Below, in pieces: positions 23-57,117 of a stretch of DNA of 64,000 nt; within the stretch, counting starts at the first letter, position 1, and the number at the start of each line of letters is the position of its first letter. The stretch is from the IMG/VR virus record IMGVR_UViG_3300025168_000036. One strand, written 5' to 3'. The position numbers and the translations under genes are program-made. The DNA comes from a virus. The notes under the pieces were generated by a model, which saw nothing but the letters and a program-made list of their open reading frames with translations, was not told the DNA's origin and did no database searches.

Positions 23-58
23 AATACAGTTTTTATTTGTTATTTTTTAATTATTATT

Positions 59-90
59 AATATAATAAATTTTACGCAAGAAAAAAAATT
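59..90 (-). promoter_or_regulatory. Class II (host-type/early) promoter AATTT-N21-TATATT
   Basis: Same two boxes at exactly 21 nt spacing at six intergenic sites; resembles Bacteroidota TTTG-N19-21-TAnnTTTG. Confidence 0.7.
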
Positions 91-123
91 TCTAACGTAT
101 TATTTTAGAAAGTTATTAACAAT
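73..123. repeat. 51-bp dispersed repeat, copy 1 (copy 2 at 23492-23543)
   Basis: tacgcaagaaaaaaaatttct[a/c]acgtattatttt[t]agaaagttattaacaat; one mismatch and one indel between copies. Confidence 0.9.
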
Positions 124-2766: not shown

Positions 2767-3800
2767 TAAATATAAATATCAGTTAAGCTTCCGTAATTAC
2801 TACCTACTAGTGTTTTTACTGGTAACTCCATTGCCTTTTCTATTTCTTTTAGTTTACAAATCTCATCTGGATGCATATCAAATACTAATGCATCATAGAT
2901 ATAAAGAATTATTTTAGACTTATTAATAATCTTAGAAACATTACTAATTATTTCTGTATTAAATTCAGTCTCATATGCCTGAATTACATAGTTAAAAAGT
3001 TTTTGTGGAGTTGTTTTTCCTAGATTTGCCCTATAAAACCTTTTACCTTTTGGTGTCTTAATATAACCTTTGTTAATATAAATATCCCATAGCTTAGAAA
3101 TATATTCGTCTGTCTTAGAAAAGAATTTTATGTGTCTGTATTCATCTGGTAGTCCACCATATAGAATTCTAAATGTTATCTTTTTAGATTCAGAGTATTG
3201 ATCATCAGTTAAATTGTCAGAACTAAAGTATTGTTTTCCTAGATATTTATGAAAACTTTCATCTGGTGTCTTATAATCTATTATTTTTGCAATTAACCTT
3301 AGATGGAATGCATCGTAGTCCATTTCAACTATCTTTCCATTATCAAATCTAGAGATGTATTTGTCTCTTGACCCATCTTCCTTATTTAATGCTGCATAGT
3401 TAATTCCGTTATTACTGTTTGAAGGCCTTCCTGTTGTTGTGAATAAATTAAATCTTGACTTTTCATATTCACCTGCAACAGTATATAATTTATTTGTCTC
3501 TATACCTCTAAACGTTGGTATTATTTTATTCTTGTAAAAATTAAAGATATCGGTAGCTGCTCCATCAATATTATATAACTCGTTATACTTTTCATTCAAC
3601 AGTGACAATCTCTCCATGTGTTTTCCACGTGGAATTATACTGTCTATGTCATTTCTATTTGGATACAGTCTTTCATAGAATCTGTGAGCTGATGTTGTTA
3701 TCTTGTCTACATCTATGCTGCTATTATTTTTAAGGTAGTATAATAGTGAAATTTCATCTTTCAGTCTATTACACTCTTCTATTACATCTTTTACTTTCAT
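2766..3800 (-). CDS. Family A DNA polymerase, polymerase domain only
   Basis: TTTGRPSN; motif A DYDAFHLRLIA; motif B KKITFRILYG; NYVIQA; motif C YIYDALVFD; only 344 aa. Confidence 0.85.
   Translation of the reverse strand: MKVKDVIEECNRLKDEISLLYYLKNNSSIDVDKITTSAHRFYERLYPNRNDIDSIIPRGKHMERLSLLNEKYNELYNIDGAATDIFNFYKNKIIPTFRGIETNKLYTVAGEYEKSRFNLFTTTGRPSNSNNGINYAALNKEDGSRDKYISRFDNGKIVEMDYDAFHLRLIAKIIDYKTPDESFHKYLGKQYFSSDNLTDDQYSESKKITFRILYGGLPDEYRHIKFFSKTDEYISKLWDIYINKGYIKTPKGKRFYRANLGKTTPQKLFNYVIQAYETEFNTEIISNVSKIINKSKIILYIYDALVFDMHPDEICKLKEIEKAMELPVKTLVGSNYGSLTDIYI
2771..2780 (-). promoter_or_regulatory. Class I (putative late) promoter GATATTTATA
   Basis: Recurrent motif, 4 nt before ATG 2766, inside the 3' end of the polymerase gene. 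Confidence 0.6.
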
Positions 3801-3808
3801 ACAGTCTT

Positions 3809-3840
3809 AATATAATAAAAAAAGCTTAAATAAAAAAATT
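3809..3840 (-). promoter_or_regulatory. Class II promoter of the polymerase gene
   Basis: AATTT(3840-3836)-N21-TATATT(3814-3809), 8 nt before ATG. Confidence 0.7.
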
Positions 3841-4729
3841 AATATGACGAAGTGTTTCCTCCACCGCCAGTTGATGCATCTGGACTAGTTGCTGGAGATT
3901 CCTGAACCATACTGTTATAATTATTAGTGTCATTCTGAGTGCTTGGAGTATAAGATACACTTTTTACCTTAATATCAAGGTCTTTAACTGATATTAGCTT
4001 GTCATGAGCTTTATCTGAGTGCTTTGCACCAACCATTGCGCCTTTTGAGCTGTGTATGTGATAATATCCTACATAGTCTTGCCCATTTGGCCTCTTAAAT
4101 TCAGACCCATTTGTATATAAGTAGCTTTTTACACTATCTGTGCTTTTTTCAACTGTATACTCTGTATAGTTTTCATCTATTACATCCATTATACCTGGGC
4201 ACCTATTATTCGCTATCATTGTATATCTTTCGTTTACCTTAGATACATCCCTCTTCATTTGCCCTAGCTCCATAGACTTTACTTTCATAAGTACGCTATC
4301 ATTTGTTAAGTCTAATAGCAGATCTAACCTTTCAACAGATAGATGCCACTTTATTGCTGCAGTACTATATAGGCCTGGAGAGTCTGCTGACTTTTCCTTG
4401 ACTGTTGCTAAGGTATCTTTATCTACTTCAGTTGGTAAGCTATCATATCTTTTTACAAAATATCTCATAAAAAAGCCTTTTTTATAATCATCTTCAGAAG
4501 GTGGATTTTGTTTACTTTCAATTCTAGTATTTGCAATTAATTTAATTTGATTTGCCATTAGCTCATTATATGTAAATGTCTCAGATGTTGTTGCATATCC
4601 TGGAGAGCCATCTTGCTTTTCAGATTCTTGTTCTTGTACTGCTCCAGACTCAACATCTTGTTCATCTTCTACTTGTGCTCTTCCACCTAAGCTAGGTAAG
4701 GGCTTAATAAGTCTGTTAATAAATGCCAT
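3839..4729 (-). CDS. Hypothetical protein at the end of the baseplate operon
   Basis: 296 aa ORF with AGGAG SD. Confidence 0.8.
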   Translation of the reverse strand: MAFINRLIKPLPSLGGRAQVEDEQDVESGAVQEQESEKQDGSPGYATTSETFTYNELMANQIKLIANTRIESKQNPPSEDDYKKGFFMRYFVKRYDSLPTEVDKDTLATVKEKSADSPGLYSTAAIKWHLSVERLDLLLDLTNDSVLMKVKSMELGQMKRDVSKVNERYTMIANNRCPGIMDVIDENYTEYTVEKSTDSVKSYLYTNGSEFKRPNGQDYVGYYHIHSSKGAMVGAKHSDKAHDKLISVKDLDIKVKSVSYTPSTQNDTNNYNSMVQESPATSPDASTGGGGNTSSY

Positions 4730-15347: not shown

Positions 15348-17159
15348 TTATTCACCAAAAGTTGCACCAGTTGGTAATACGTTAAAGTCAATTACTATAA
15401 ATTCTGCAGCCTTAGCCGGTTGTAAGAATATTTCACCTTTTAAGATGTTTCTGTCAATTACATCAGGTGTGTTATTTGATTCATCCATTACAACTCTAAA
15501 GGCAAACAAACCTTGTTTCGTTTGTACATCTGCCATATAAGGATTAACAGCTGATAAGAACCTATTTCTAGTTGCAGCAGTATTATTTTCAAATACTAAG
15601 AATCTAGATGTAGATGCAATAAACTTCTTAAGTCTAATTAATAGTCTTCTAACATTTACACGATCAAGTGCAGATGCTTTTCTTTGTAGTGTCTTTTGTC
15701 CCCAAGCACATACACCTTGTCCAGGGAATGTTGCAATAGGATTAATACCTTTTTCGTATAATGTATCTCTGTCTGAATGTGGTAGCTTTCTTTCAGCTTG
15801 TATAGCAGAATCAAGTCCACCTCTATTCAAACCTGCAGGAGCAAACCATTCGTGAGCAACTTGGTCATTGAATGCAAATACACCTGCCATTAAAGTAGAT
15901 GCCGGCACCCATACTAATTGATTAGTTGAACTATCATTTGTTAAACACCATGGGTAGTACATTGCACCATAAGATGAATCAAAATTATCACCTTGAGTTG
16001 CAGCAGTAGCTACATTTTGATCCCATTTTACAGGATCAAGAATTGCCATACAATCACCTCTTTCCTCACATGAGTTAAGAATTTGAGTTGCTAATGCACT
16101 ATGTTCACCTGCAAGAACACCTGGTACTAATAACATATTAATATCATAATCATCTGCATTACCCATTAAAAGTATTGCTGAATATAATTCATCGCATGAT
16201 GTTAATGTAGAATAGTCATATCCTTGAACGTTTGTTGAATCAATAGTTTCATGCCAATTTGCTACTACATTGTTTGGCCCAGCACTTCCATCACTTCCTC
16301 CAGTAAATGAACCTGACCAAACTCCTCCAGTAACAACCCTTGTAGGTAGTGAACCAGTAGCTGAGTTTAATCTTATGCTTCCATCTTCTAATAAATAGTT
16401 TGGTGTTGCAAAATCTACAGACTTTATTCTAATATATTTAGATTTGTTTGGATACTTACCTGTTGTCTTAACATATCTTGTATTGCCTGATCCAGCAATA
16501 GTGTGGGTTTGATTTCCAATAACTCTTTCAATGTAGTTGGTAGAATTAGGATCTAGATTAACTCCATTCCATGATTCTAAAGCAACCTTTCTCTTTTTAG
16601 AGTCATCACCTCGCCTAATAGTTAGTGTAAATGTACCTTTTGTGTCATTAACAGAACTAACTTCTAGTCTTAAATTATCTTTATCACCTGCTCCAGTTAA
16701 TACATGGTTTGAAATAGACCCTGAACTGGTTTGTAATACACCGTGTGATAGTGTTTCTGTAGTAAATGATGCAGTTATTAATGCTTGGACTGCATAGTTG
16801 TTTAGGGCAGTACCTGCATTTATTGATGCAGAAACTGGTACCTTACATGTTGCAGCAGTATAACTACCTGATAACATTCTAACTACAGTTAGTGCACTTC
16901 CATTCTTTAAATATTCTTTTGCAGCAGTATTTGTTAAATATGAATAATTTTTTGTGTCTGCATCGGAACTACCTGATGATACCACGTCTCCAAAAATTTG
17001 AACATATTCACTATAATTTGACACCATTGTAGGTGCCATCGCAGGCCCCTTAGCTGTTGGCCCAATAACAGCAGCACCAATCTCACCTACAGCTTGTGGT
17101 AAGAATGATAAATCTTTTTCCGAGGTAAATACACCTGGTGATACAATTTTCTCAGCCAT
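15348..17159 (-). CDS. gp18: Tail sheath protein (T4 gp18-like)
   Basis: N-terminal SPGVFTSEKDLS; C-terminal WFAPAGLNRG, INPI, WGQKTL, RVNVRRLL, AEFI. Confidence 0.95.
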   Translation of the reverse strand: MAEKIVSPGVFTSEKDLSFLPQAVGEIGAAVIGPTAKGPAMAPTMVSNYSEYVQIFGDVVSSGSSDADTKNYSYLTNTAAKEYLKNGSALTVVRMLSGSYTAATCKVPVSASINAGTALNNYAVQALITASFTTETLSHGVLQTSSGSISNHVLTGAGDKDNLRLEVSSVNDTKGTFTLTIRRGDDSKKRKVALESWNGVNLDPNSTNYIERVIGNQTHTIAGSGNTRYVKTTGKYPNKSKYIRIKSVDFATPNYLLEDGSIRLNSATGSLPTRVVTGGVWSGSFTGGSDGSAGPNNVVANWHETIDSTNVQGYDYSTLTSCDELYSAILLMGNADDYDINMLLVPGVLAGEHSALATQILNSCEERGDCMAILDPVKWDQNVATAATQGDNFDSSYGAMYYPWCLTNDSSTNQLVWVPASTLMAGVFAFNDQVAHEWFAPAGLNRGGLDSAIQAERKLPHSDRDTLYEKGINPIATFPGQGVCAWGQKTLQRKASALDRVNVRRLLIRLKKFIASTSRFLVFENNTAATRNRFLSAVNPYMADVQTKQGLFAFRVVMDESNNTPDVIDRNILKGEIFLQPAKAAEFIVIDFNVLPTGATFGE

Positions 17160-17222
17160 TTATTTCTCTCCTATCTCTTGTTTTGATATAATATCCAATA
17201 CGTTTATGTATTCTATTCGTTA

Positions 17223-20239: not shown

Positions 20240-21877
20240 TTAAATAGTGTTTAATCCAGATACATTAATCTTACCGTAGAATTCTGGTCTTACAACTTTC
20301 TTAGCATACCTAGTCATTACACCTTTTCTTGGAGTAAAGTTAGTTGGATCGTATACTAGTGGAGTCATAATTAATGGAATATAAGGAGCATAAACTGCAC
20401 CAGTTTCCAAGAATTGAGTACCACGGAATCCCATAATAATCTCATTTGATTGCATGTAAGGGTTTTTGTAAACTGTAAATCTGTTAGCTAAGCTACCGAT
20501 TTTAGTTACGCCCATTGCAAATGATTGTTGAGCACCATCTGTATCAACACCGAATCCAGAAATAGATTCTAACACAGTAGAAACCTCAGGTCCACATACT
20601 AAGAAGTTAGCACCACCACGCATTGTTTTTGCATGAATTTTGTTACTTACTTTTTGTACTTTTGTACCTAATGTTGCAAACCATGAAGTTTGTTGATAAG
20701 CATATTGTGAACCAACAGCAGAAAATGCAGTTCCAGCAGCATTTAATGCCTGTCCGTCTGCATGCCATGAATCAGTTGTGTTTGCATTTGCAGATAACAT
20801 ACCTAAGATTTCTAAATCTATTTCCATAGAAATATATTCAGATAACATAGATGTTAATTCAGCCTCAGCATCAATTGAGTGATAAGCATTTAAGTCTTGA
20901 GCAAATTCTGGAGTCCAGATTACTTTTAACTTTCTTGTCTTAGCTACAATTGCCTCAGATCTTAATTCAACATTTACTTCAGGAATATTCAAGTCTGTTG
21001 CAGTTCCAGCAGCATAAGATGTAGGATCTTTATCCTCAAAATCACCTCTTGACTGGTCATTAGCATTCTTGATTACAAATGAAGTCTTGATTTGACCTAA
21101 TCCAAAAGTATCAGCCCATGTTGGTAGTTCAGCAGCAGTTTCACCGATGAAAGTTACAACACCTGCAGCAGTAGCAGTAGTAAACTGTGGATATACTTTA
21201 AAGTCAGATGCAGAAACTTGGAAAGCTTGTGCAGCCTGTTCATCAAGATTAGTGTTTTCAGTTGTAATTACAACCTTCTTTAATCTCTTAGCAGTAACTA
21301 AAGTTTCTAAACTAGAATCAAAGTTAACATCAGCTAAAGAAGCAGTAGATGCTGCAGTTAAAGCGTCAGCTACACCTGTAGATGCAGATCTGTTAGTTGA
21401 ATATCCGAACTTTCCAGAACCATAAAGGCCTCCAGAAGGATCAACATTTTTGGTATCTGTAGTACCCATTATTTTATCACCAGTAGCTACTGTGTGAGTG
21501 TTAGCGGCAGTTCCGCCTACGCCTGAATCAGACCCATATTTGAAGTCTAGGAAAAATACTAGACCTGATGGTAGATTCATTGGTTGTACGCTTACAAAAT
21601 CTTTTGCAGCAATTTCACCGAAAATTCTTCTTACTAGTGGAAGTGCAACTCCTGACCATTCTTCTTTACTACCACCTGTACCGGTAGCATTAGCTTCTTG
21701 GATCAATTGTCTTGCTTGATTTTCTAAAAGAATAGCAGTATTATGTTTTTCATACTCTGCATCGATTCCTTCTAAAAGACCAGTTTTTTCCCACTTATTT
21801 ACATAAGCTTTAGTTTCAGCAATTTGTTGCCTATAAGTATTTTGAGCGTCGTTAAGTAAATTACTTACGTTTGACAT
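20240..21877 (-). CDS. gp23: Major capsid protein (T4 gp23-like)
   Basis: LPLVRR, VQPMNLPSGLVF, AKTRKLK, AQDLNAYHSIDAEAEL, YAPYIPL, PRKGVMTRY. Confidence 0.97.
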   Translation of the reverse strand: MSNVSNLLNDAQNTYRQQIAETKAYVNKWEKTGLLEGIDAEYEKHNTAILLENQARQLIQEANATGTGGSKEEWSGVALPLVRRIFGEIAAKDFVSVQPMNLPSGLVFFLDFKYGSDSGVGGTAANTHTVATGDKIMGTTDTKNVDPSGGLYGSGKFGYSTNRSASTGVADALTAASTASLADVNFDSSLETLVTAKRLKKVVITTENTNLDEQAAQAFQVSASDFKVYPQFTTATAAGVVTFIGETAAELPTWADTFGLGQIKTSFVIKNANDQSRGDFEDKDPTSYAAGTATDLNIPEVNVELRSEAIVAKTRKLKVIWTPEFAQDLNAYHSIDAEAELTSMLSEYISMEIDLEILGMLSANANTTDSWHADGQALNAAGTAFSAVGSQYAYQQTSWFATLGTKVQKVSNKIHAKTMRGGANFLVCGPEVSTVLESISGFGVDTDGAQQSFAMGVTKIGSLANRFTVYKNPYMQSNEIIMGFRGTQFLETGAVYAPYIPLIMTPLVYDPTNFTPRKGVMTRYAKKVVRPEFYGKINVSGLNTI

Positions 21878-21894
21878 TTTTGTCTCCTAATTTT

Positions 21895-22854
21895 TTATAG
21901 TAAACCTGCCAACTTCTTCATTCTAGATGAAAAGTTGTTAGATTCAACAATTACGTTTTTATTTGGTTTAGTCGAATTAACGGCTTTTGAAGCAAAACCT
22001 TCAGTTACTGATCTCTTCTTAGTTGGTTTGTATCCAGTTAAAGATTCTGCTAAAGTAGTGTATACTAATTTAACTTCTCTTACTGAACCTGCCCTATCGA
22101 AAGTTTCAATAATTTTCATTTTTTGTGATTCATTTAGACCGTTACTTCTAAATAGTTTGTTTGAGAATAAAAGTTTTGCATTCAACAAATTAACTTCATT
22201 GATCTTATCTTTTAGGAACTTAATAGTTTTGTAAGCTTCTTTAAGATCTTCATCTTTTTCAGTTTCATTTGTAGGCTCATCTTCGTCCTCATCTTCTTCT
22301 TGAAGTGCTTTAATTACCTCGTCTAAATCTATCTCTGTATCATCAGATGGTTCATCATCTTCAGTTTCGTCCATTGGTTTTTCATCAGAATCTTCAGTTT
22401 CAGTCACAGGTTCTTCATCATCACTGTGGTCTTCATCTTCAGTTTCCATTTCTTCACCATCGTCTTCTAATTCTTTAATGATTGATTCAAGTTCTAAGTC
22501 GTCTTCATCTTCAGTTTCATACATGTCATCATCTTCAGTTTCATGTATTTCTTCATCAGTGTCTTCACCACCTTCTGATTCATCTTCACCTACTTCGTTG
22601 TATGCTTCTTCAGTTTCATCAGCCTGACCTAAGTCGGTTGAGTCATCTGCGTCCATTTCAACAGTAGCTTCTGGAGTATCAGCTAGTTCTTCTTCATCAT
22701 CAAAATCTTCAGATTCTTCAGCGATCTTTTGAGATAACATAGATTGTAGTCTAGGGGTAAAAGCCTCTTCTAAAGCTAGTTTAGCATTCGCAATTGCAGT
22801 TTCTCTAACTGCTTTCGCATCAGCTATAGCTTCTTTTAACAAGTTTTTTGACAT
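21895..22854 (-). CDS. Prohead core / scaffold protein (T4 gp22-like)
   Basis: Helical ends, very acidic centre with repeated xxETE; directly upstream of capsid gene; GAGGAG SD. Confidence 0.85.
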   Translation of the reverse strand: MSKNLLKEAIADAKAVRETAIANAKLALEEAFTPRLQSMLSQKIAEESEDFDDEEELADTPEATVEMDADDSTDLGQADETEEAYNEVGEDESEGGEDTDEEIHETEDDDMYETEDEDDLELESIIKELEDDGEEMETEDEDHSDDEEPVTETEDSDEKPMDETEDDEPSDDTEIDLDEVIKALQEEDEDEDEPTNETEKDEDLKEAYKTIKFLKDKINEVNLLNAKLLFSNKLFRSNGLNESQKMKIIETFDRAGSVREVKLVYTTLAESLTGYKPTKKRSVTEGFASKAVNSTKPNKNVIVESNNFSSRMKKLAGLL

Positions 22855-22979
22855 TTTGTGTCTCCTCTTAATTTATGTTTAGGAAGTATAGCTATTAGGA
22901 GCTATAATAGAATTTATTTTAATACGTTTGCAATGTATCTAGTTATCACATGCGTTTTTACGTATAATTGTTAATCGAA

Positions 22980-23248: not shown

Positions 23249-23434
23249 TTATTTATTATTTATTAGTTTTGATTCTTGTTTTTCAACCACCTTACATGCG
23301 TAGTCAAATTCTTCTGGTGCAGTATGAATGTTTTCAGCATCATAAGCTTTGATTACAAATGTTGTTTTATTTTCAACAATTGATATTAGTGTTCCTGATA
23401 GTTTGACGGTGTAATTTGGAAAGGTCTTTTTCAT
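23249..23434 (-). CDS. Hypothetical protein, 61 aa
   Basis: First ORF after a class II promoter; no SD. Confidence 0.65.
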   Translation of the reverse strand: MKKTFPNYTVKLSGTLISIVENKTTFVIKAYDAENIHTAPEEFDYACKVVEKQESKLINNK

Positions 23435-23477
23435 AAGTCTGTTTTTCGTTAGTATGTTAATTAGTTATTTATATATA

Positions 23478-23509
23478 AATATAAACAAAAATACGCAAGA
23501 AAAAAAATT
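23478..23509 (-). promoter_or_regulatory. Class II promoter
   Basis: AATTT-N21-TATATT, overlapping repeat copy 2. Confidence 0.7.
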
Positions 23510-23543
23510 TCTCACGTATTATTTTTAGAAAGTTATTAACAAT
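23492..23543. repeat. Dispersed repeat, copy 2 (copy 1 at 73-123)
   Basis: Near-identical to 73-123. Confidence 0.9.
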
Positions 23544-23549
23544 TAGTTG

Positions 23550-23894
23550 TTAAACAGCCTTACCATCTCTAATTACAGTCCATATATGGTTCTTATCATG
23601 CCTCTTTTGTCTTGCAGTCTCTCTCTTTTGCATGGCTTTGGCATAGTCCATCTTTTTAACTCTTTTTGCAGAATTACCTTCAAAGTATCTCCTTTCCTTA
23701 TACTCATCTAGCTTCCCTGAGTCCTTTATTTGTCTCTTAAATATTTTAAGGGCCTTTTCTAGGTCTCCTGGTGTTGAACCTGGAACCTTAACTCCTCCTG
23801 GTACTCCTGGTATAATAAAGTCTGAACGCTTCCTATAATTTTTAATTGGCCTTCCAGACCTATCTCTTGGTGTATGCTTTCTTTTATCTGACAT
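23550..23894 (-). CDS. rpsU: Phage-encoded ribosomal protein bS21 with N- and C-terminal extensions
   Basis: Core VKV...DLEKALKIFKRQIKDSGKLDEYKERRYFEGNSAKR matches the bS21 pattern; located among head genes as in known bS21 phages. Confidence 0.85.
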   Translation of the reverse strand: MSDKRKHTPRDRSGRPIKNYRKRSDFIIPGVPGGVKVPGSTPGDLEKALKIFKRQIKDSGKLDEYKERRYFEGNSAKRVKKMDYAKAMQKRETARQKRHDKNHIWTVIRDGKAV

Positions 23895-23926
23895 AAATGT
23901 TTTTTTTGTATTAATTAATTGTATAT

Positions 23927-23958
23927 AATATAAACAATTTCTGCTTAATAAAAAAATT
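23927..23958 (-). promoter_or_regulatory. Class II promoter of bS21
   Basis: AATTT(23958-23954)-N21-TATATT(23932-23927). Confidence 0.7.
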
Positions 23959-24562: not shown

Positions 24563-25729
24563 TTAAGCTCCTATTCTTGAGTATGTTAGCATATCATTAA
24601 TTGCTTTAAGTGCTTTCTTTTTTGCTGAATCAAATTCTTTTCCATATCTTCCTGATCCACCAGCCTTTTTAGCATTGGATACCATTTTCATTATATTGTT
24701 AATTTCCTTTGTCTCCTTTGAAGTTTTCATCTTAGGAGCAGCTTCTTTGATATGCTTCTTAGCTACAGCTTGGAAGTTTCTAAGGTTTGCTCCATTAAGT
24801 CTATCTGCAAAGCCTCTAGAATGTAGTGCTTTTACTAGATCTGTAAAACTGCCCTTGGTTAGTTTTTTAGCATCTTTTTGTTTTTTCAGAAATTGTTCTA
24901 TGTCCCAAGATAATACTGCAGGAATTGTTTTAAGACCTTTTTCTGCTGATGGAGCAGCTTCCTTAATGTGAGTTCTTTTCCAACCATCATATCTTACTTT
25001 TCCAAAGTTGTTTCTTCCAGTTGCAATACCTCTAAACCCTCCAACAGATTCATTAACAGACCCATCTTCCTCATCATCAATAGCATTTGCAATTGCAGCT
25101 CTTTTCTTAGCTAAATACTTATCTGATTCATCTTCATCACCATCATTATCTATATCTCCGTCTTCTTTTCCGACTGAGTCTAAAGCCTCTGATATTTCGT
25201 AGTATTTACCAAGCTTGTGGCCAATGTCTTCAAACACAGATTCCAATCTTTGCTGTAATGTATTCATTTCATTTGCAGTTTTTGTTAGCTGATCAACTGA
25301 ACCACCAATCCCTTTTACATCATTCTTTACAGTAACTGAATCAAACCAACCATCTGTCTCTTGTAATGCTAATTGGCCAGCACTTGAAGCCATAAGTTTT
25401 ATTGACTCAACCATCTCTTTTATCTCGTCTGTTCTGTATATCTTTGATGCAAACTCATTAAAGTTTTTTACTGCCTCAAGAACTTCTCTTTTTTGCCTTG
25501 GAGTAAGCTTTTGCTGTTCACTTTCCATAAGCGTTGAAAGTTTTATTCCCATTGTATTTTCTCCTATTTCAGTTTCTATTGTTTTTAGGTCTATATTTGG
25601 CTCTTCCTCATCTTTTACTGAGGGTTTAGCCTTCTTATTATAATTATCAAGCTCATCATCAAGAGTTTTAATCTGCTCAGGTGGCTTAGGTATCATATCG
25701 TTATCTATAAGTTCTGATAGTCTAATCAT
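24563..25729 (-). CDS. Putative modular prohead core / internal protein
   Basis: Start at 25729 overlaps the protease stop (ATGA); second SD-led in-frame ATG at 25552; DGDIDNDGDEDESDKYL motif; duplicated HIKEAAP. Confidence 0.75.
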   Translation of the reverse strand: MIRLSELIDNDMIPKPPEQIKTLDDELDNYNKKAKPSVKDEEEPNIDLKTIETEIGENTMGIKLSTLMESEQQKLTPRQKREVLEAVKNFNEFASKIYRTDEIKEMVESIKLMASSAGQLALQETDGWFDSVTVKNDVKGIGGSVDQLTKTANEMNTLQQRLESVFEDIGHKLGKYYEISEALDSVGKEDGDIDNDGDEDESDKYLAKKRAAIANAIDDEEDGSVNESVGGFRGIATGRNNFGKVRYDGWKRTHIKEAAPSAEKGLKTIPAVLSWDIEQFLKKQKDAKKLTKGSFTDLVKALHSRGFADRLNGANLRNFQAVAKKHIKEAAPKMKTSKETKEINNIMKMVSNAKKAGGSGRYGKEFDSAKKKALKAINDMLTYSRIGA

Positions 25730-26517: not shown

Positions 26518-26976
26518 TTAAAATTTTCTTAGCTTTTCACCTATTCTCATCATTCTTTCAGATATCTTATAAAGACCTTTTCTTGTTGACTTCCAATACT
26601 GCCTATTATCAATACCTTCCTCTGTTTTAAGCTTAATATTTTGATTAATAATTCTTTCAATTTTAATAAGCTTACTGTGCACCTCTTTTATTGCACTATT
26701 AACTTTATTCTTAGATGTTCTAGACTCATCCTTTTTATAAGCGCTGTATGAAATTTCGTTCATTGCCTTTTGCATCTTCATAAATGTCGATTCCTTAACT
26801 TTCTTGTAACCTAATACCTCAGCGTTTTTATTCTCATCTTCCTTCTTTTTCTTACTAAATGCATTTGGAGTCTTATATGGGCCCGCTGCAGAAGAAGTGT
26901 TGTGCTCATCCACATCTTCCTTCTTATAGCTTTCCCAGCTTTCTAGAAGCTCATCTAACTTTTTATTTAGTGACAT
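26518..26976 (-). CDS. Head-module hypothetical protein
   Basis: 152 aa; YKTPNAF motif; overlaps upstream gene. Confidence 0.8.
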   Translation of the reverse strand: MSLNKKLDELLESWESYKKEDVDEHNTSSAAGPYKTPNAFSKKKKEDENKNAEVLGYKKVKESTFMKMQKAMNEISYSAYKKDESRTSKNKVNSAIKEVHSKLIKIERIINQNIKLKTEEGIDNRQYWKSTRKGLYKISERMMRIGEKLRKF

Positions 26977-27867: not shown

Positions 27868-29718
27868 TTATAAATTATCATCTATAAGGTTATTTTCGTT
27901 TAATAGGCCACTTTCGCCTTCTTGCTTATCATTAAATAGTGATCTTACTATTTTTTGATTATTTTCTCTAAAGTTATGTCTAATAGATCTATCTCTATTT
28001 TTATGATCTGATTTTCTCTTCTTTTTGCCTAATGGGTCTCTACCTCTTGCAGACTTATCTGTTCCTGGTTTTGCCCCATCCTTTGGCCTACCTTGACCTG
28101 GCTTATTCTCTGTCATTTCATCATCTGAAAAGAAATTAGTTACATCTGGTGCATCTGGTTCAAAACCACCGTCTTCTCCTTCGGGAGGCGTACCACCTTG
28201 CTGTAGTGCCCAATCAGTTGAAACAGATATCTTAGATACTTTAGGGTTATTTCCATCTTCAAGCTCATTGTGTAAAAATACCCTTTTTCTATCATCTTCA
28301 ACTTCCTTTCTGTTTCTATTCATCTCCTCTTCACTCATATTAAATATATTTTCATATATCCATTTCTCGCCTAACAGCTTTCCAGTTTGTATATCTGATG
28401 CTAATGTCACTTTACTAGACCATAGCTCTACTTGTTCTTGTTCATATATCTTAGAAGGATTAGTTAAGTTTAGTGAAAAGTTAACTAAGTCTTCTCCATC
28501 CATACCTTGTGAATGCAAATGCACTATTGCTATCTTAGTTAGCTCAGATGTTACTATCTTCTGTATTCTTTCTATTGTTCTTGCAAACCTTACATCCTCT
28601 GCAGCTAATGTTGCTTTCCCAGATGTTGACTCATCATACCCTAAAAATGCTTTTGGTATCTTTAGTGCAGCAAACATTCTGTTTCTTAGGTACTCAATAT
28701 CTTCAATGCCTCCAAACTCCATACCGGAAAGAGAGTCTATTTCTGTCCCACTTTGACCTCCTCTAACAGGTAAATAAAAGTCTTCCATCATATTTTGTAA
28801 ATTAAACTTAAGGTTATAATTACCAGTATCTTGGTCTATGAATGGAGTCTTTTTCATTGATGTCATAACTCTTTGCATGTATTGGTCTACCTCATTCGGT
28901 GGAATATTTCCAATATCAACCTTAAAAACTCTTTTCTCTGGAGCCCTCATAATTCTATGAATCATCATTGCATCTTCCATAAGAGTTAATTGCTTCCAGT
29001 TTTTTCTAGCACCTTCAAGCATAGACTTACCATAAGGTAAAAAGTTTGCATCACTTAGCATTCTAAGGTGAGCTATTTCATAATTTTCATATTTTACTGT
29101 ATTTGAATTTGATGCGCCGTAATTACCTGCACCTCCTAGTGATGGGTCGTGATGGAATAATACAGATTCAGGCTTAGAAGGGTCGAATCCTTCTTCTCTT
29201 AGCATCTCATAAGGTGTAATTGGAATTACATTAGTAACTCCATATTTTTCTGTTATATCTAGTTTAAGATAGAAGTCTCCATATTTAACTAAGTTTCTTA
29301 CCCATGGCCATAAATTAAATTCTATATTTAATATGTCATAGAATAAGTTATGTAATATCTTCTGAGTATCATCATTGGAACTCTTTATATTTAGTATATC
29401 ACCATACTCATTCTTCATTGTTGACTCATCAGCATAAATATCTAATGCAGAGGCAATAATAGAATCTTCATCCATCATTTCGTAGTCCGTAAATAGCTGT
29501 AACCTGTGTGTATGATAGTTTTGCTGAAAGTTATATCCTGTATTTCTAGATGAGGTATATAATCTATTAAATCTATCAACCAGCCTATTAGTTTCAAGGT
29601 TTGATGATTGAACTCTGTTTATATCTACTACTTTTAGCTTCTTTTCACCTGTTCTTCTGATTATACTACCAGTAGAAAATAGTGTTTGTAGCCTTCCAAA
29701 TAATGTTTTATCTGCCAT
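27868..29718 (-). CDS. gp20: Portal protein (T4 gp20-like)
   Basis: QLTLMEDAMMIHRIMRAPEKRVFKVDIGN, EDFYLPVRG, GTEIDSLSG, ALKIP. Confidence 0.95.
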   Translation of the reverse strand: MADKTLFGRLQTLFSTGSIIRRTGEKKLKVVDINRVQSSNLETNRLVDRFNRLYTSSRNTGYNFQQNYHTHRLQLFTDYEMMDEDSIIASALDIYADESTMKNEYGDILNIKSSNDDTQKILHNLFYDILNIEFNLWPWVRNLVKYGDFYLKLDITEKYGVTNVIPITPYEMLREEGFDPSKPESVLFHHDPSLGGAGNYGASNSNTVKYENYEIAHLRMLSDANFLPYGKSMLEGARKNWKQLTLMEDAMMIHRIMRAPEKRVFKVDIGNIPPNEVDQYMQRVMTSMKKTPFIDQDTGNYNLKFNLQNMMEDFYLPVRGGQSGTEIDSLSGMEFGGIEDIEYLRNRMFAALKIPKAFLGYDESTSGKATLAAEDVRFARTIERIQKIVTSELTKIAIVHLHSQGMDGEDLVNFSLNLTNPSKIYEQEQVELWSSKVTLASDIQTGKLLGEKWIYENIFNMSEEEMNRNRKEVEDDRKRVFLHNELEDGNNPKVSKISVSTDWALQQGGTPPEGEDGGFEPDAPDVTNFFSDDEMTENKPGQGRPKDGAKPGTDKSARGRDPLGKKKRKSDHKNRDRSIRHNFRENNQKIVRSLFNDKQEGESGLLNENNLIDDNL

Positions 29719-29727
29719 AATTTATTC

Positions 29728-31311
29728 CTATTTTATTAACCAAGTTAAGTCTTCGTCTGGGCCTTTATTTCCCATCTTCATCTTCCATGGGTCACTTGTT
29801 AAGTGGCTTGAGTTACTAAATCCTCCTGCACCAGTCTTGCCCATTAATCTTAGCGCATTCTTATTCATTGCCAATCCTTCGTTTCTCAGTTTTAGAGCTG
29901 AGTCTCTTACAAACAGTCCAATTGCGAAGGCCATTACCAAGTCATCATTATATCCACTTTGAGCTTCTGGCCTATTATTTTTCCAAATAAATACAGATAG
30001 CTCATCTAAGAGTCTTCTTGATCTTACTATAATGTCCTTTTCTCTAAAATAAATATCAAGCTTAGACACTAAAAGTGGTCTAGTCCTCGAAGAAGTTGTA
30101 AATCCTGGAACCATCTGAGACTTATCTTTTAAGTCGTATCCTTTTGTTAAATGTGTTGCAGAGTCAGTAACTCCTTCATGTTTATATGTATAATATAAAT
30201 TTTGGTAGTCTCTATCTATTGCCTGCTGTATTGCTGCCCACCCAACATTTGCGTTTTCTATAACTAGCAATGCATTATTCCATTCGGTAGCTACTGTAAC
30301 TAACATATTCCCAAAATCTTTTGTGCTTGGCTGACCTTTATATTCTGCAACTTGCTTTAAGCCTTGTATGTCTAATACATGAAATGTTGAATAGTCACTT
30401 CCATCTCCTCTAGATACATCAGCAACTACTACATAATCTTTTGAAAAGTCTGGGTATTCCCATATCCAATAATTGCCATCAACCCCTCTTCTTTCAGTAG
30501 GCTCTTCTGCATAGTTTTCTTTATACCATTCTAGTATTTTAGGTTCGACTACAGATGCACCAGAGCTAATAAAGTCACAGTCACATTCTTGCGCTGCCAT
30601 CTTAGGTCCTAGCAATCCGTCTTGTTTATCTCTCCAATCTTGTTCTCTCTCTGGGTGCAATGACCAGTGGAGCCTAATTGTATTAAAGTCGTTTTCGCCG
30701 TCTTCTGCCTTTACCCATGTTTTATGAAAGAAATTACCAACACCATTTGGTGTAGAAAGTATTATTGCCTTACCACCAGTTGCAAGTGTCTGTTGAGATG
30801 AAGCCCATATATCATCTATCCTATCAACAAATGCAGCCTCATCAATAATTAATAGCGAAAGTGCCTCTGATCTACCAGCATCTCCGCCAGATGATATTGC
30901 CTTAATTTGTGAGCCATTTGCAAACCTTAAACTTAGCTTATTATCTTCTATTGACTTATTCTTTAACCATGATGGTAAATACTGATGCATTGTTCTTACC
31001 TTCGTTACAAGGTTTTTTGCTACATCTTGCTTAGTTGCAATTACCAGACAGTTAAAGTCATCTTGAAAGATCATATGCCATAATGATATACCAGCTGACA
31101 GTGTTGATATTCCTAGCTGCCTAGACTTTAATATAATATTATAGTCATTTGTTGCAAACTCATCTATACACTTCTCTTGGAATGGGAAAAGATTAAATAG
31201 TATCTTTCCTTTTGTTGGGTGCTGTATATAACAATACTTGCGCATAAAGTGCACCGGATCAGTAGCACACTTTTGATATTCTTTAGCTATTAATTGTTTG
31301 ATATTCGACAT
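29728..31311 (-). CDS. terL: Terminase large subunit (T4 gp17-like)
   Basis: KSRQLGIST (Walker A), LIIDEAAF (Walker B), LSTPNG, nuclease ADVSRG...DYS and DDLVMA. Confidence 0.95.
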   Translation of the reverse strand: MSNIKQLIAKEYQKCATDPVHFMRKYCYIQHPTKGKILFNLFPFQEKCIDEFATNDYNIILKSRQLGISTLSAGISLWHMIFQDDFNCLVIATKQDVAKNLVTKVRTMHQYLPSWLKNKSIEDNKLSLRFANGSQIKAISSGGDAGRSEALSLLIIDEAAFVDRIDDIWASSQQTLATGGKAIILSTPNGVGNFFHKTWVKAEDGENDFNTIRLHWSLHPEREQDWRDKQDGLLGPKMAAQECDCDFISSGASVVEPKILEWYKENYAEEPTERRGVDGNYWIWEYPDFSKDYVVVADVSRGDGSDYSTFHVLDIQGLKQVAEYKGQPSTKDFGNMLVTVATEWNNALLVIENANVGWAAIQQAIDRDYQNLYYTYKHEGVTDSATHLTKGYDLKDKSQMVPGFTTSSRTRPLLVSKLDIYFREKDIIVRSRRLLDELSVFIWKNNRPEAQSGYNDDLVMAFAIGLFVRDSALKLRNEGLAMNKNALRLMGKTGAGGFSNSSHLTSDPWKMKMGNKGPDEDLTWLIK

Positions 31312-52365: not shown

Positions 52366-53266
52366 ATAATTTATACTCCATAATCTTCGCGAATGTTAGA
52401 GAATTTGTATTCTCTATTATTTCATTTATTTTTTTTCTACCAAGTTCGTTTGGATCTTTTCCTGGCATTTCTACTAGCCTAACATCAACCCCACAGCCCA
52501 TAAAATATTCTGCATGCCTTATTGCGTCAACCTTAGCATCATCATCTAATACTATATTTATTTTTTTAACATTCTTTTCTATAATTTTCTTTCTTAGCTC
52601 ATTAGATATTAGCTTCCCAAAAAGTGGTATTGCATTGTTATTAACTGTCATAGCATCTATTGGGCCTTCAACTATTGTTAGTGGTGATGACCAATCAACT
52701 AATAGTTCAAATCCTATAATGTCCTTAGACACTTGTGGATTTTTATGCTTAAAACTTGTATCATAAAAGGATCTTCCTGTAAAGTAGTTTAATTCGCCAT
52801 TGTGATCGTAGCTTGGTATTATAATCATGCCTGAGTATGGTCCATCTTCACAATAGCCTATGTTATATCTTAATATATCATATTTACTAAAGCCTCTTTT
52901 CATAATATATCTAAATGCATTTCTAAAGTCTGGGCTATTTCTATTACCTTCAATTATTGGAATATATTCATTTGGTAAACCTACTATTGTAGATGCTGTC
53001 TGCTTTGCTGTTGGGATTGCATCGCCAACCAAATTATAGTATTTTTTTATCTTGTCTTGAGATGCACCTACCTTCTTAAATATAGAGTATAGCTTTCTAC
53101 CTTTTTTGCCACAAACCCAGCATTGCCATTTTTGGCTTATTATGTTTATACTTAGCTTCTTCTTATGATGGCTACAATAAGGGCACTTAAATGATACCTC
53201 GTCATTATTAACGTGGCCATTTCCTAAGATACCTTCTAATAAGCTTATTACTCGAAAATTTGACAT
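52355..53266 (-). CDS. DNA primase (zinc finger plus TOPRIM)
   Basis: CPYC...CWVC; IVEGPIDA; VLDDDA; KDPNE. Confidence 0.9.
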   Translation of the reverse strand: MSNFRVISLLEGILGNGHVNNDEVSFKCPYCSHHKKKLSINIISQKWQCWVCGKKGRKLYSIFKKVGASQDKIKKYYNLVGDAIPTAKQTASTIVGLPNEYIPIIEGNRNSPDFRNAFRYIMKRGFSKYDILRYNIGYCEDGPYSGMIIIPSYDHNGELNYFTGRSFYDTSFKHKNPQVSKDIIGFELLVDWSSPLTIVEGPIDAMTVNNNAIPLFGKLISNELRKKIIEKNVKKINIVLDDDAKVDAIRHAEYFMGCGVDVRLVEMPGKDPNELGRKKINEIIENTNSLTFAKIMEYKLYEN

Positions 53267-53272
53267 AGTGTT

Positions 53273-53304
53273 AATATAACAAAATTTTGTGAATTACTTA
53301 AATT
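53273..53304 (-). promoter_or_regulatory. Class II promoter of primase
   Basis: AATTT(53304-53300)-N21-TATATT(53278-53273), 6 nt before ATG. Confidence 0.7.
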
Positions 53305-56478: not shown

Positions 56479-57117
56479 TTATGCTAATATATCTAGTGAT
56501 GCATCCTTTTTAATTGTCACTGGAATGTCTACACTACCACCTGTTTCATTTGCAGTTATTGTTATTGTTGTTGTACTATCTACTGTTAATTGTTTTGCTA
56601 CCAACTCAAACCTTAGACCAGTAACAGAAAGAGACTTAGCATCATCACCTAATACATCAGATGTAGTAGCAGATCCTATTGAACCACCTTGTGCCACCCT
56701 TAGTATTGCATAGTCACTATTTCCAAGTGTTGCGGTGTAGCCTAATACAGAATTACCATTTGATATATTTGCAGTAGTTGGTGTAATTACTTGTCTACTT
56801 CCAGGTCTTTGTAGTGTTATTGAAGATAATCCAGTTTCTAATACTGGAAGTCTTAATGTATTTTTACCCAAAGAGATAAGCTTGTATTTCATCATTTGAG
56901 TTTCTAATGGGAAAGCCTCTAGCATTGGTAGAGACTCTATTGCCTCACCATACTTATCTGATCCTTGATCATGTCCTGTGTCCCAGAGCCTGTAGTCTAT
57001 TTCATCATCTGCTAATGCAAATTTTGTAATTTCTAGCTCACCTTTAGCCAACAGCTCTCTGCCCTTCTTTGTAAGAATTGCATCTACTGTTAAACTTGTA
57101 TTATCTAAATATCCCAT
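56479..57117 (-). CDS. Virion structural protein (baseplate/tail)
   Basis: MGYLDNTSLTVDAILTKKGRELLA...ITKFALADDEIDY; GGGAG SD; class I promoter. Confidence 0.8.
   Translation of the reverse strand: MGYLDNTSLTVDAILTKKGRELLAKGELEITKFALADDEIDYRLWDTGHDQGSDKYGEAIESLPMLEAFPLETQMMKYKLISLGKNTLRLPVLETGLSSITLQRPGSRQVITPTTANISNGNSVLGYTATLGNSDYAILRVAQGGSIGSATTSDVLGDDAKSLSVTGLRFELVAKQLTVDSTTTITITANETGGSVDIPVTIKKDASLDILA

Follow-up and report, generated by a model that had tools for sequence, protein, structure and literature searches.

A bS21 gene without an SD among the SD-led genes of marine T4-like phages, and its possible action on the host anti-SD

The bS21 gene and its transcription unit

We consider a stretch of viral DNA of 64,000 nucleotides, here called the window, which represents the head-tail region of an uncultured T4-like marine myophage. 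The long open reading frames of the window are all on the minus strand and the G+C content is 34.7%. The main head and tail genes, the bS21 gene with its flanking elements, and a second cassette resembling these elements are located as follows.

29728-31311, minus strand: large terminase (Pfam)
27868-29718, minus strand: portal (Pfam)
20240-21877, minus strand: major capsid protein Gp23 (Pfam)
15348-17159, minus strand: tail sheath (Pfam)
23550..23894, minus strand: phage bS21 gene, 114 amino acids (Pfam PF01165)
23895..23919, minus strand: translation initiation region (TIR) of bS21, SD-less, A-rich and unstructured (sequence, folding)
23920..23957, minus strand: promoter-like element private to bS21, TTTTTTTATTAAGCAG-N-TTGTTTATATTATATACA, of the TTATATT-core class (sequence)
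23480..23542, minus strand: TTGTTAATAACTT motif, intrinsic-terminator hairpin and U-run closing the bS21 unit (motif, terminator scan)
23..122, minus strand: second copy of the cassette of terminator and promoter; the leader of the gene starting at 22 is SD-less and A-rich (sequence)

Elsewhere in the window, Pfam matches are seen for a PhoH gene, an endonuclease, a Toprim protein and a DNA_pol_A fragment. The bS21 gene is placed in the head module, between the prohead protease and the major capsid protein, and it is on the same strand as its neighbours (minus), not on the opposite one. The initial annotation, made from the letters of the window, had treated the occurrence of phage bS21 genes near head genes as prior knowledge, and this placement is indeed published.

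The bS21 protein matches Ribosomal_S21 with 35.9 bits (cut-off 27) over residues 43-82, and its best matches among the PDB sequences are bS21 chains. It is composed of a basic N-terminal extension of about 25 residues, an IIPG..GVKVPG insertion, a two-helix core and a long basic C-terminal tail, which ends in a conserved HIWTVIRDGKAV motif containing W105. That the protein is extended at its N-terminus, as had been claimed, is also evident from the alignment, where helix 1 begins 33 residues later than in host bS21. In the AF2 model the two helices span residues 42-67 and 74-102 (pLDDT 81), and a Foldseek comparison of this model with the PDB gave no match at E <= 0.001. The family consists of proteins of 110-124 amino acids from marine metagenomes, with F26, G30, P32, V35, V37, P38 and W105 being invariant in an alignment of 28 members. 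A search of the ESM Atlas with bS21 returned viral bS21 clusters only, and tblastn against cultured phages returned no match.

The bS21 gene is a stand-alone unit, and the 63-nt spacer upstream of it contains the promoter-like element and a 25-nt leader. The 15 bases upstream of the start are ACAAAAAAAACATTT and contain no SD, just as had been described. The duplex energy of the leader with the anti-SD is +2.2 kcal/mol, the fold energy of the leader is -0.3 kcal/mol (z = +0.6), and positions -6 to -13 are occupied by A. An A-tract at -11 to -14 is a signature of Bacteroidia TIRs, and in the bS21 leader an A-tract occupies -11 to -13 and A stands at -6, both of which favour initiation in Flavobacterium johnsoniae (PMC6847099).

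The T-tract-AAGC box of the promoter-like element recurs, together with TTATATTA, before the DNA_pol_A gene at 3800. At the orthologous position in two related contigs, G002 and G001, there is an exact copy of TTGGATAAGTC-N-TTATATT, a 22-copy promoter that we call the E-box. It had been proposed that bS21 is expressed early from a host promoter. The element mismatches the F. johnsoniae sigma-A -7 consensus TAHHTTTG, so that a host promoter is unproven, and the E-box is also without the near-invariant G of this consensus. The bS21 promoter looks phage-specific, and the label "early" is thus unsupported. The type of promoter was dropped as evidence on the host, because the E-box geometry fits sigma-70-like and Bacteroidia spacing alike.

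At the other end of the unit, the terminator scan gives a match at 23520-23490. The hairpin, which lies about 30 nt past the bS21 stop codon, has an energy of -15.4 kcal/mol (z = -4.05), equalled by 0 of 200 shuffles. The TTGTTAATAACTT motif occurs as exact copies at 23530-23542 and 110-122. Another promoter comes after the bS21 terminator.

SD sequences in the window and in related contigs

The pattern of SDs around the bS21 gene is confirmed. All the 17 starts for which AGGAG had been reported have AGGAG 6-9 nt upstream, and one further AGGAG-led start, at 26976, was absent from that list; about 0.3 AGGAG-led genes would be expected from the base composition. With the SD score defined as the duplex energy of positions -18 to -3 with the 16S tail, with a threshold of -6 kcal/mol and with control positions inside genes as the null, 50% of the window genes (n = 54) are at or below the threshold, versus 12% for the null. 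Of 27 GGAG sites, 22 have the canonical spacing of 6-8 nt to the start codon. The genes described as SD-less, that is, those at 23434 and 22, DNA_pol_A at 3800 and the Toprim gene at 53266, are SD-less, and the terminase start at 31311 is preceded by AAGGT only. Representative initiation regions of the two kinds are given below.

21878..21895, minus strand: TIR of the major capsid protein, AGGAG 8 nt before the start (sequence)
17160..17177, minus strand: TIR of the tail sheath, AGGAG (sequence)
22855..22872, minus strand: TIR of a 319-amino-acid head gene downstream of bS21, GAGGAG (sequence)
3801..3845, minus strand: TTATTATATTA element 7 nt before the DNA_pol_A ATG, SD-less (sequence; same in the G002 orthologue)
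53267..53300, minus strand: TTGTTATATTA element 6 nt before the Toprim/primase-like ATG, SD-less (sequence)

Since the TTATATTA element is just 6-7 nt before the ATG of DNA_pol_A and Toprim, the mRNAs of these genes are probably leaderless; for DNA_pol_A, the position of the element points to an mRNA that is probably leaderless or near-leaderless.

The SD pattern is shared by the relatives. G002 is a 138-kb IMG/VR contig, estimated to be about 80% complete, which shares synteny and 65-75% nucleotide identity with the window; from its length and estimated completeness the genome size of the relatives is about 170 kb. The SD fraction is 0.37 in G002 (null 0.08) and 0.36 in G001, the nulls for the window, G002 and G001 being 0.08-0.12, and it is 0.19-0.65 in 33 further IMG/VR contigs of the lineage. 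Each of the 35 additional contigs examined from this capsid lineage is SD-rich. The SD status is conserved between orthologues of the window and G002, with an SD in both for 17 and in neither for 11 (p = 0.025), and the AGGAG of the capsid TIR is kept in the G002 orthologue, the orthologue in the Flavobacterium phage immuto having none. The bS21 gene occupies the same slot in 33 of the 35 lineage contigs and is SD-less in 30 of these 33, an SD before bS21 itself being present in three contigs and in the contigs binned with MAG NAT55. On two SD-rich contigs, L152 and L154 (12 and 39 kb), no bS21 was seen.

In G002 the SD frequency differs between promoter classes. The E-box, TTGGATAAGTC-N8-11-TTATATT, has 22 copies there, and the class includes bS21, DNA_pol_A, primase and a 20-kb block of small genes. 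An SD is absent from 18 of the 19 first genes behind an E-box, with a mean of +0.66 kcal/mol, whereas 42% of the 136 remaining genes are SD-led (Fisher p = 9e-4, Mann-Whitney p = 2e-8). For genes that follow the late-type GATATTTAT motif, the SD-led share is 53%. The proposed split between early genes without and late genes with an SD therefore stands in so far as the SD frequency differs by promoter class in G002; the SD-led genes are, however, not solely late. Replication and metabolism genes inside the E-box operons are also SD-led, and because SD-led genes fill the interiors of these operons the split is not simply one of early versus late.

It could be argued that the purine-rich motif is no ribosome-binding site and was either inherited from an earlier association with an SD-using host or serves as a signal in RNA processing or in transcription. 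We regard this as very improbable. No positive evidence for such a reading was found, and the motif is exactly complementary to CCUCC, is sharply concentrated 6-8 nt ahead of start codons, stands also before internal cistrons, is conserved between genomes that are about 30-35% apart in nucleotides, and is found across the 35 lineage contigs.

The host of the lineage

In Bacteroidia ribosomes the anti-SD tail of the 16S rRNA is held in a pocket formed by bS21, bS18 and bS6, so that SDs are ignored. As far as we know, Bacteroidia are the sole large bacterial group having SD-ignoring ribosomes, in which bS21 belongs to the latch concealing the anti-SD. Whether SD-led phage genes call for an explanation depends, then, on the host, for which the initial annotation assumed a Bacteroidota lineage, and the evidence from the relatives favours an SD-blind host.

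G002 encodes a protein of 1082 amino acids with a signal peptide and, at its extreme C-terminus, a full-length T9SS type-A sorting domain (TIGR04183, 38.4 bits with a cut-off of 23; PF18962, 41 bits with a cut-off of 27). Two other large relatives, G016 and G017, likewise encode full-length T9SS type-A cargo; the type-B CTD models PF13585 and TIGR04131 have no match in the relatives, and T9SS cargo is absent within the 64-kb window. The cargo family has more than 7000 members, nearly all of which are listed with that domain. Among species-representative genomes, about 37 of 42 loci with homologues of the cargo are in Bacteroidia, mostly in Flavobacteriales, Cryomorphaceae and Crocinitomicaceae and some of them on contigs of 0.6-1.8 Mb. 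Two "bacterial" cargo loci turned out to be lineage phage contigs binned with Flavobacteriales and Winogradskyella MAGs. In three of the bacterial genomes with cargo homologues the SD use is 2-6% of genes versus a null of 10-11%, and the host-clade bS21 has Tyr54 or Phe54 in two of the three and in a fourth MAG, for which the full gene is readable. When bacterial genomes were initially scanned for the capsid protein, nothing was found.

Three cultured phages of Bacteroidia are SD-poor, like their hosts. The SD fraction is 0.03 in immuto, 0.04 in Cellulophaga phage phi38:1 and 0.13 in crAss001, in all cases not above the null. Immuto shares 26 orthologues with the window, and an SD is present before 0 of the 14 immuto orthologues of SD-led window genes; bS21 was not found in immuto. 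The cultured relatives nearest by major capsid protein include a Flavobacterium phage and Mel-JY01, which was recorded on Microcystis.

We have also considered that the host is not SD-blind, being either outside Bacteroidia or an SD-reading relative that bears a T9SS, in which case the phage would have an ordinary SD-competent bS21 and no switch would occur. The SD use of the lineage resembles that of the Pelagibacter phage HTVC008M (0.30 vs 0.05), the basic, Tyr-less tail of the phage bS21 is like that of non-Bacteroidia bS21, and Mel-JY01, with its record on a cyanobacterium, uses SDs weakly. The host markers are known from relatives and not from the window's own genome, the host of the window's own phage being inferred from relatives with 55-63% identity in the major capsid protein. 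Moreover, G002 and G001 have a permuted tmRNA, as is typical of Alphaproteobacteria and of part of the cyanobacteria. The tmRNA was set aside as a host marker, since two-piece tmRNAs often occur in marine phages and can differ from the form in the host (PMC9004378). Against a host that reads SDs stand the sorting domains in the three large relatives, the almost exclusively Bacteroidia origin of the cellular cargo homologues, the binning of lineage contigs with Flavobacteriales MAGs and the Flavobacterium phage among the nearest cultured relatives, and in addition the avoidance of SD-like sequence by the early first genes, which is as strong as in Bacteroidia genes. On balance we consider an SD-reading host quite unlikely. 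The markers argue that the clade has, with good probability, a host in Bacteroidia, and they point to Flavobacteriales within this class as the most likely hosts.

The phage bS21 and the host anti-SD

The phage protein was compared with host bS21 by a gap-free phmmer alignment to PDB 9i5v chain 9, which has Tyr at residue 54, and by a MAFFT alignment that took in three Flavobacteriales bS21. Both agree with the residue mapping in the initial annotation, placing Ala88 of the phage protein in the Tyr54 column and GNS at the position of KPS. The loss of Tyr54 is thus borne out by alignment, and it extends to the family, where 0 of 28 members have an aromatic residue in this column, the residues there being Ala, Arg or Asp; the three Flavobacteriales bS21 and 9i5v_9 have Tyr or Phe. 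After the KPS motif, the C-terminal tail has 39 residues with a net charge of +7 to +9 in the phage proteins (39 residues and +9 in the window) versus about 20 residues and +2 to +4 in the hosts. The phage bS21 is therefore without both Bacteroidia-type marks, the aromatic residue 54 and the short, weakly basic C-terminal portion.

These marks have been studied in F. johnsoniae. At the turn of the 16S tail into the bS18/bS6 groove, A1534 has Tyr54 stacked on it (Jha 2021, PMC7797042), and the replacement Y54A or a C-terminal deletion of bS21 releases the anti-SD (PMC7797042, PMC9976891). With Y54A the translation of strong-SD reporters increases 1.7- to 3-fold (McNutt 2023, PMC9976891) and with the C-terminal deletion 4-5-fold, SD-less reporters being unaffected in both cases (PMC9976891).

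Based on these results, we propose the following model. The A-rich, unstructured and SD-less bS21 mRNA would be suited to the unmodified ribosomes of the host. The phage bS21, which keeps the core that anchors it to the 16S rRNA and is without the Bacteroidia signature, would then displace or out-compete host bS21 on the 30S subunits, the anti-SD would be released from its pocket, and the SD-led phage genes (40-60%, with AGGAG or GGAG 6-8 nt upstream) would outdo the SD-less mRNAs of the host. The incorporation into ribosomes, the release of the anti-SD and the timing are steps that we only infer. The ribosome switch put forward in the initial annotation is, from the sequence comparisons, partly supported, and for the explanation as a whole, in which the exchange of bS21 frees the anti-SD and favours SD-led phage mRNAs, we see the chances as evenly balanced. 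The more general proposal, that a widespread clade of marine Flavobacteriales phages turns the host ribosome into an SD-reading one by means of its own bS21 and so obtains a private translation channel, falls a little short of that.

Several points count against the explanation. The anti-SD pocket is made mostly by bS18 and bS6, neither of which is phage-encoded, no homologue of bS18 being found in G001, G002, immuto or Mel-JY01; and the effect of Y54A alone, as given above, is only 1.7- to 3-fold. It is also expected that with the release of the anti-SD the SD-led rpsU gene of the host would be boosted too, counter to the interest of the phage.

Residue 54 by itself does not track SD use. In a sister sublineage, L031/L032, Tyr is kept at position 54, yet the contigs are SD-rich; other SD-rich sister types have Glu (L027) or Leu (the NAT55-binned contigs) there; and LR756508 (484 kb) encodes a Tyr-less bS21 and has no SD use. 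A rule by which Tyr-less bS21 and SDs go together is contradicted by these variants and was rejected.

These cases bear on another possibility, namely that in a Bacteroidia host the SDs are functional but are enabled by something other than the sequence of the phage bS21. This might be another phage factor, the destruction or depletion of host bS21, or 70S re-initiation in tightly packed operons, with the phage bS21 merely completing ribosomes or biasing them otherwise. F. johnsoniae ribosomes depleted of bS21 already read SDs (PMC9976891), which, together with SD-rich contigs L152 and L154, the Tyr-keeping L031/L032 and the SD-less LR756508, is consistent with such a cause. Many SD-led genes are internal cistrons whose stop and start codons overlap, as re-initiation would have it; the SDs on 53% of the first genes behind late promoters imply, however, that coupling alone is insufficient. 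The fixed slot of bS21 in nearly all lineage contigs and the lack of both bS21 and SDs in the related Flavobacterium phage also argue against such a cause, as does the SD-less design of its gene, which is hard to explain if the product is unrelated to SD use, and the finding of no bS18 homologue in G001 or G002 speaks in the same direction. We therefore consider a cause other than the bS21 sequence unlikely.

It is noted that SD-rich phages in SD-blind hosts demand an explanation even if bS21 is not the agent. If the model of anti-SD release by the phage bS21 is true, it would provide a clear case of a virus re-specifying the mRNA selection of the ribosome, and it would account for the retention of the anti-SD in Bacteroidia or, failing this, show how it can be exploited. 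To our knowledge, phage-encoded bS21 is the commonest ribosomal protein of viruses, and the combination of a latch-less bS21, an SD-rich genome and an SD-less bS21 mRNA suggests a concrete function for it that can be tested. The reporters of Jha and McNutt and the purified F. johnsoniae system are suited to testing it directly.

Several elements of this picture have precedents. There are published accounts of phage bS21 itself, of its placement in the head module and of its N-terminal extensions, and ribosome substitution has also been put forward in print. Our literature search, with incomplete coverage, found no paper on the release of the anti-SD by a phage bS21 or on SD-rich phages of Bacteroidia. 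The closest system is that of the bS21-encoding huge phages of freshwater Bacteroidetes, of 293-331 kb (Chen et al. 2022, ISME Commun, PMC9723584). There, too, bS21 is within the head module of terminase, portal, prohead protease and major capsid protein, the predicted hosts are Bacteroidetes, and a substitution of bS21 that favours phage mRNAs was proposed. By contrast, the bS21 gene of those phages is on the reverse strand and its product has Tyr54 or another aromatic residue, from which it was argued that the anti-SD stays blocked as with the host protein, whereas the bS21 of the window is encoded on the same strand as its neighbours, is Tyr-less, has N- and C-terminal additions and belongs to an SD-rich genome. 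The RBS or SD use of phage genes is not mentioned in that paper.

N-terminally extended rpS21 is known from huge phages, and it was proposed that the basic extensions aid competitive binding (Al-Shayeb 2020, PMC7162821). The bS21 of the Pelagibacter phage HTVC008M enters Escherichia coli ribosomes (Mizuno et al. 2019). This protein is likewise phage-encoded, but the phage has a SAR11 host and SD-enriched genes, so that no change of specificity is needed there, and no link to SD-blind hosts was made. With the Francisella bS21 paralogues (PMC9578407), the exchange of one variant for another alters the selection of mRNAs by the ribosome, in a system that is cellular and not viral.

In the specialised ribosomes of F. 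johnsoniae, the site on the ribosome and the predicted outcome are the same as in our model, with SD-led genes increased and SD-less ones unaffected. The difference is that in F. johnsoniae this serves as an autoregulatory loop for a single SD-led gene, rpsU, whereas the phage would exploit it genome-wide. The SD-less bS21 gene of the phage is in this respect the reverse of the SD-led rpsU of the host.

Promoter-like elements and candidate leaderless mRNAs

In G002, a 138-kb IMG/VR contig syntenic with the window (pieces L033-L039), a promoter-like element, TTTGGATAAGTCG-N8-TnTTATATT(T/A), here called the E-box, is conserved in 22 copies (e.g. at 56984, 57388, 64941 and 121954), with the first genes behind it being SD-less. 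Because the element is far longer than a sigma-factor hexamer, a phage activator may act on it. The TTTGGATAAGTCG box is absent from the window's own phage, where a T-tract-AAGC box is present in its place.

The window holds two near-identical copies of a cassette, in which TTGTTAATAACTT is followed by a hairpin terminator, AATACGTNAGAAA..TTTCTTGCGTA, and then by the promoter-like TT(T)ATTATATT:

60-122, minus strand, cassette copy
23470-23542, minus strand, cassette copy

It is noted that the TTGTTAATAACTT motif is found again in G002, upstream of E-box promoters.

Just 6-7 nt separate a -10-like TTATATTA from the downstream ATG at these places:

window 3801-3830, before the DNA_pol_A gene
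window 53267-53295, before the primase-like gene
G002 3265, 7188, 15513, 23959, 32353, 55979 and 93728, further sites

This short spacing suggests that the DNA_pol_A gene, the primase-like gene and several other genes preceded by TTATATTA have leaderless mRNAs.

bS21 variants and SD use in related contigs

Phage contigs of the window lineage are included in Flavobacteriales and Winogradskyella MAG bins (L104 and L105, which are contigs C35 and C58 of the Flavobacteriales MAG NAT55, together with L058 and L059), and two MAG-binned phage contigs carry short bS21 variants (65-70 aa) with Leu at position 54, the column holding Tyr or Phe in Bacteroidia hosts; translation of these variants starts at TTG, and each gene is preceded by a GAGGT SD of its own. 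The highest SD use in the lineage, 77-82% of genes, is seen in L152 (IMGVR_UViG_3300030202_002569) and L154 (IMGVR_UViG_3300030207_003601), where bS21 was detected neither in the usual slot nor in the remainder of the contig. The 484-kb phage LR756508.1 encodes a related capsid protein (52%) with a bS21 gene adjoining, and its genes avoid SDs (6% versus 14% in the null):

L057:1489-1728, bS21 of LR756508.1, 79 aa, Met at position 54

Other features of the relatives and the window

The following features were found in relatives of the window phage:

L036:12517-12677 (G002), permuted (two-piece) tmRNA, also in G001 (L042); Rfam RF04321, 66.9 bits, cut-off 47
L036:8639-8712 (G002), tRNA-Arg(UCU), near the permuted tmRNA
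L035:3791-7036 (G002), secreted phage-encoded protein of about 1000-1100 aa, also at G016:12718-12915 and G017:70047-70244

The predicted tag of the tmRNA is GTQVEMAMAA, with Gly as the first residue. A two-piece tmRNA is not the known form in Bacteroidia hosts. The secreted protein carries numerous copies of a GCTD..NYD..ANTDDGSC repeat in addition to its signal peptide and T9SS type-A sorting domain, and has more than 7000 metagenomic homologues.

In the window itself, a patch of about 100 nt (25080-25183) within the 396-aa head gene has 73-84% identity to 'hypothetical protein' genes of the T4-like cyanophages P-SSM4, P-RSM4 and S-TIM4.
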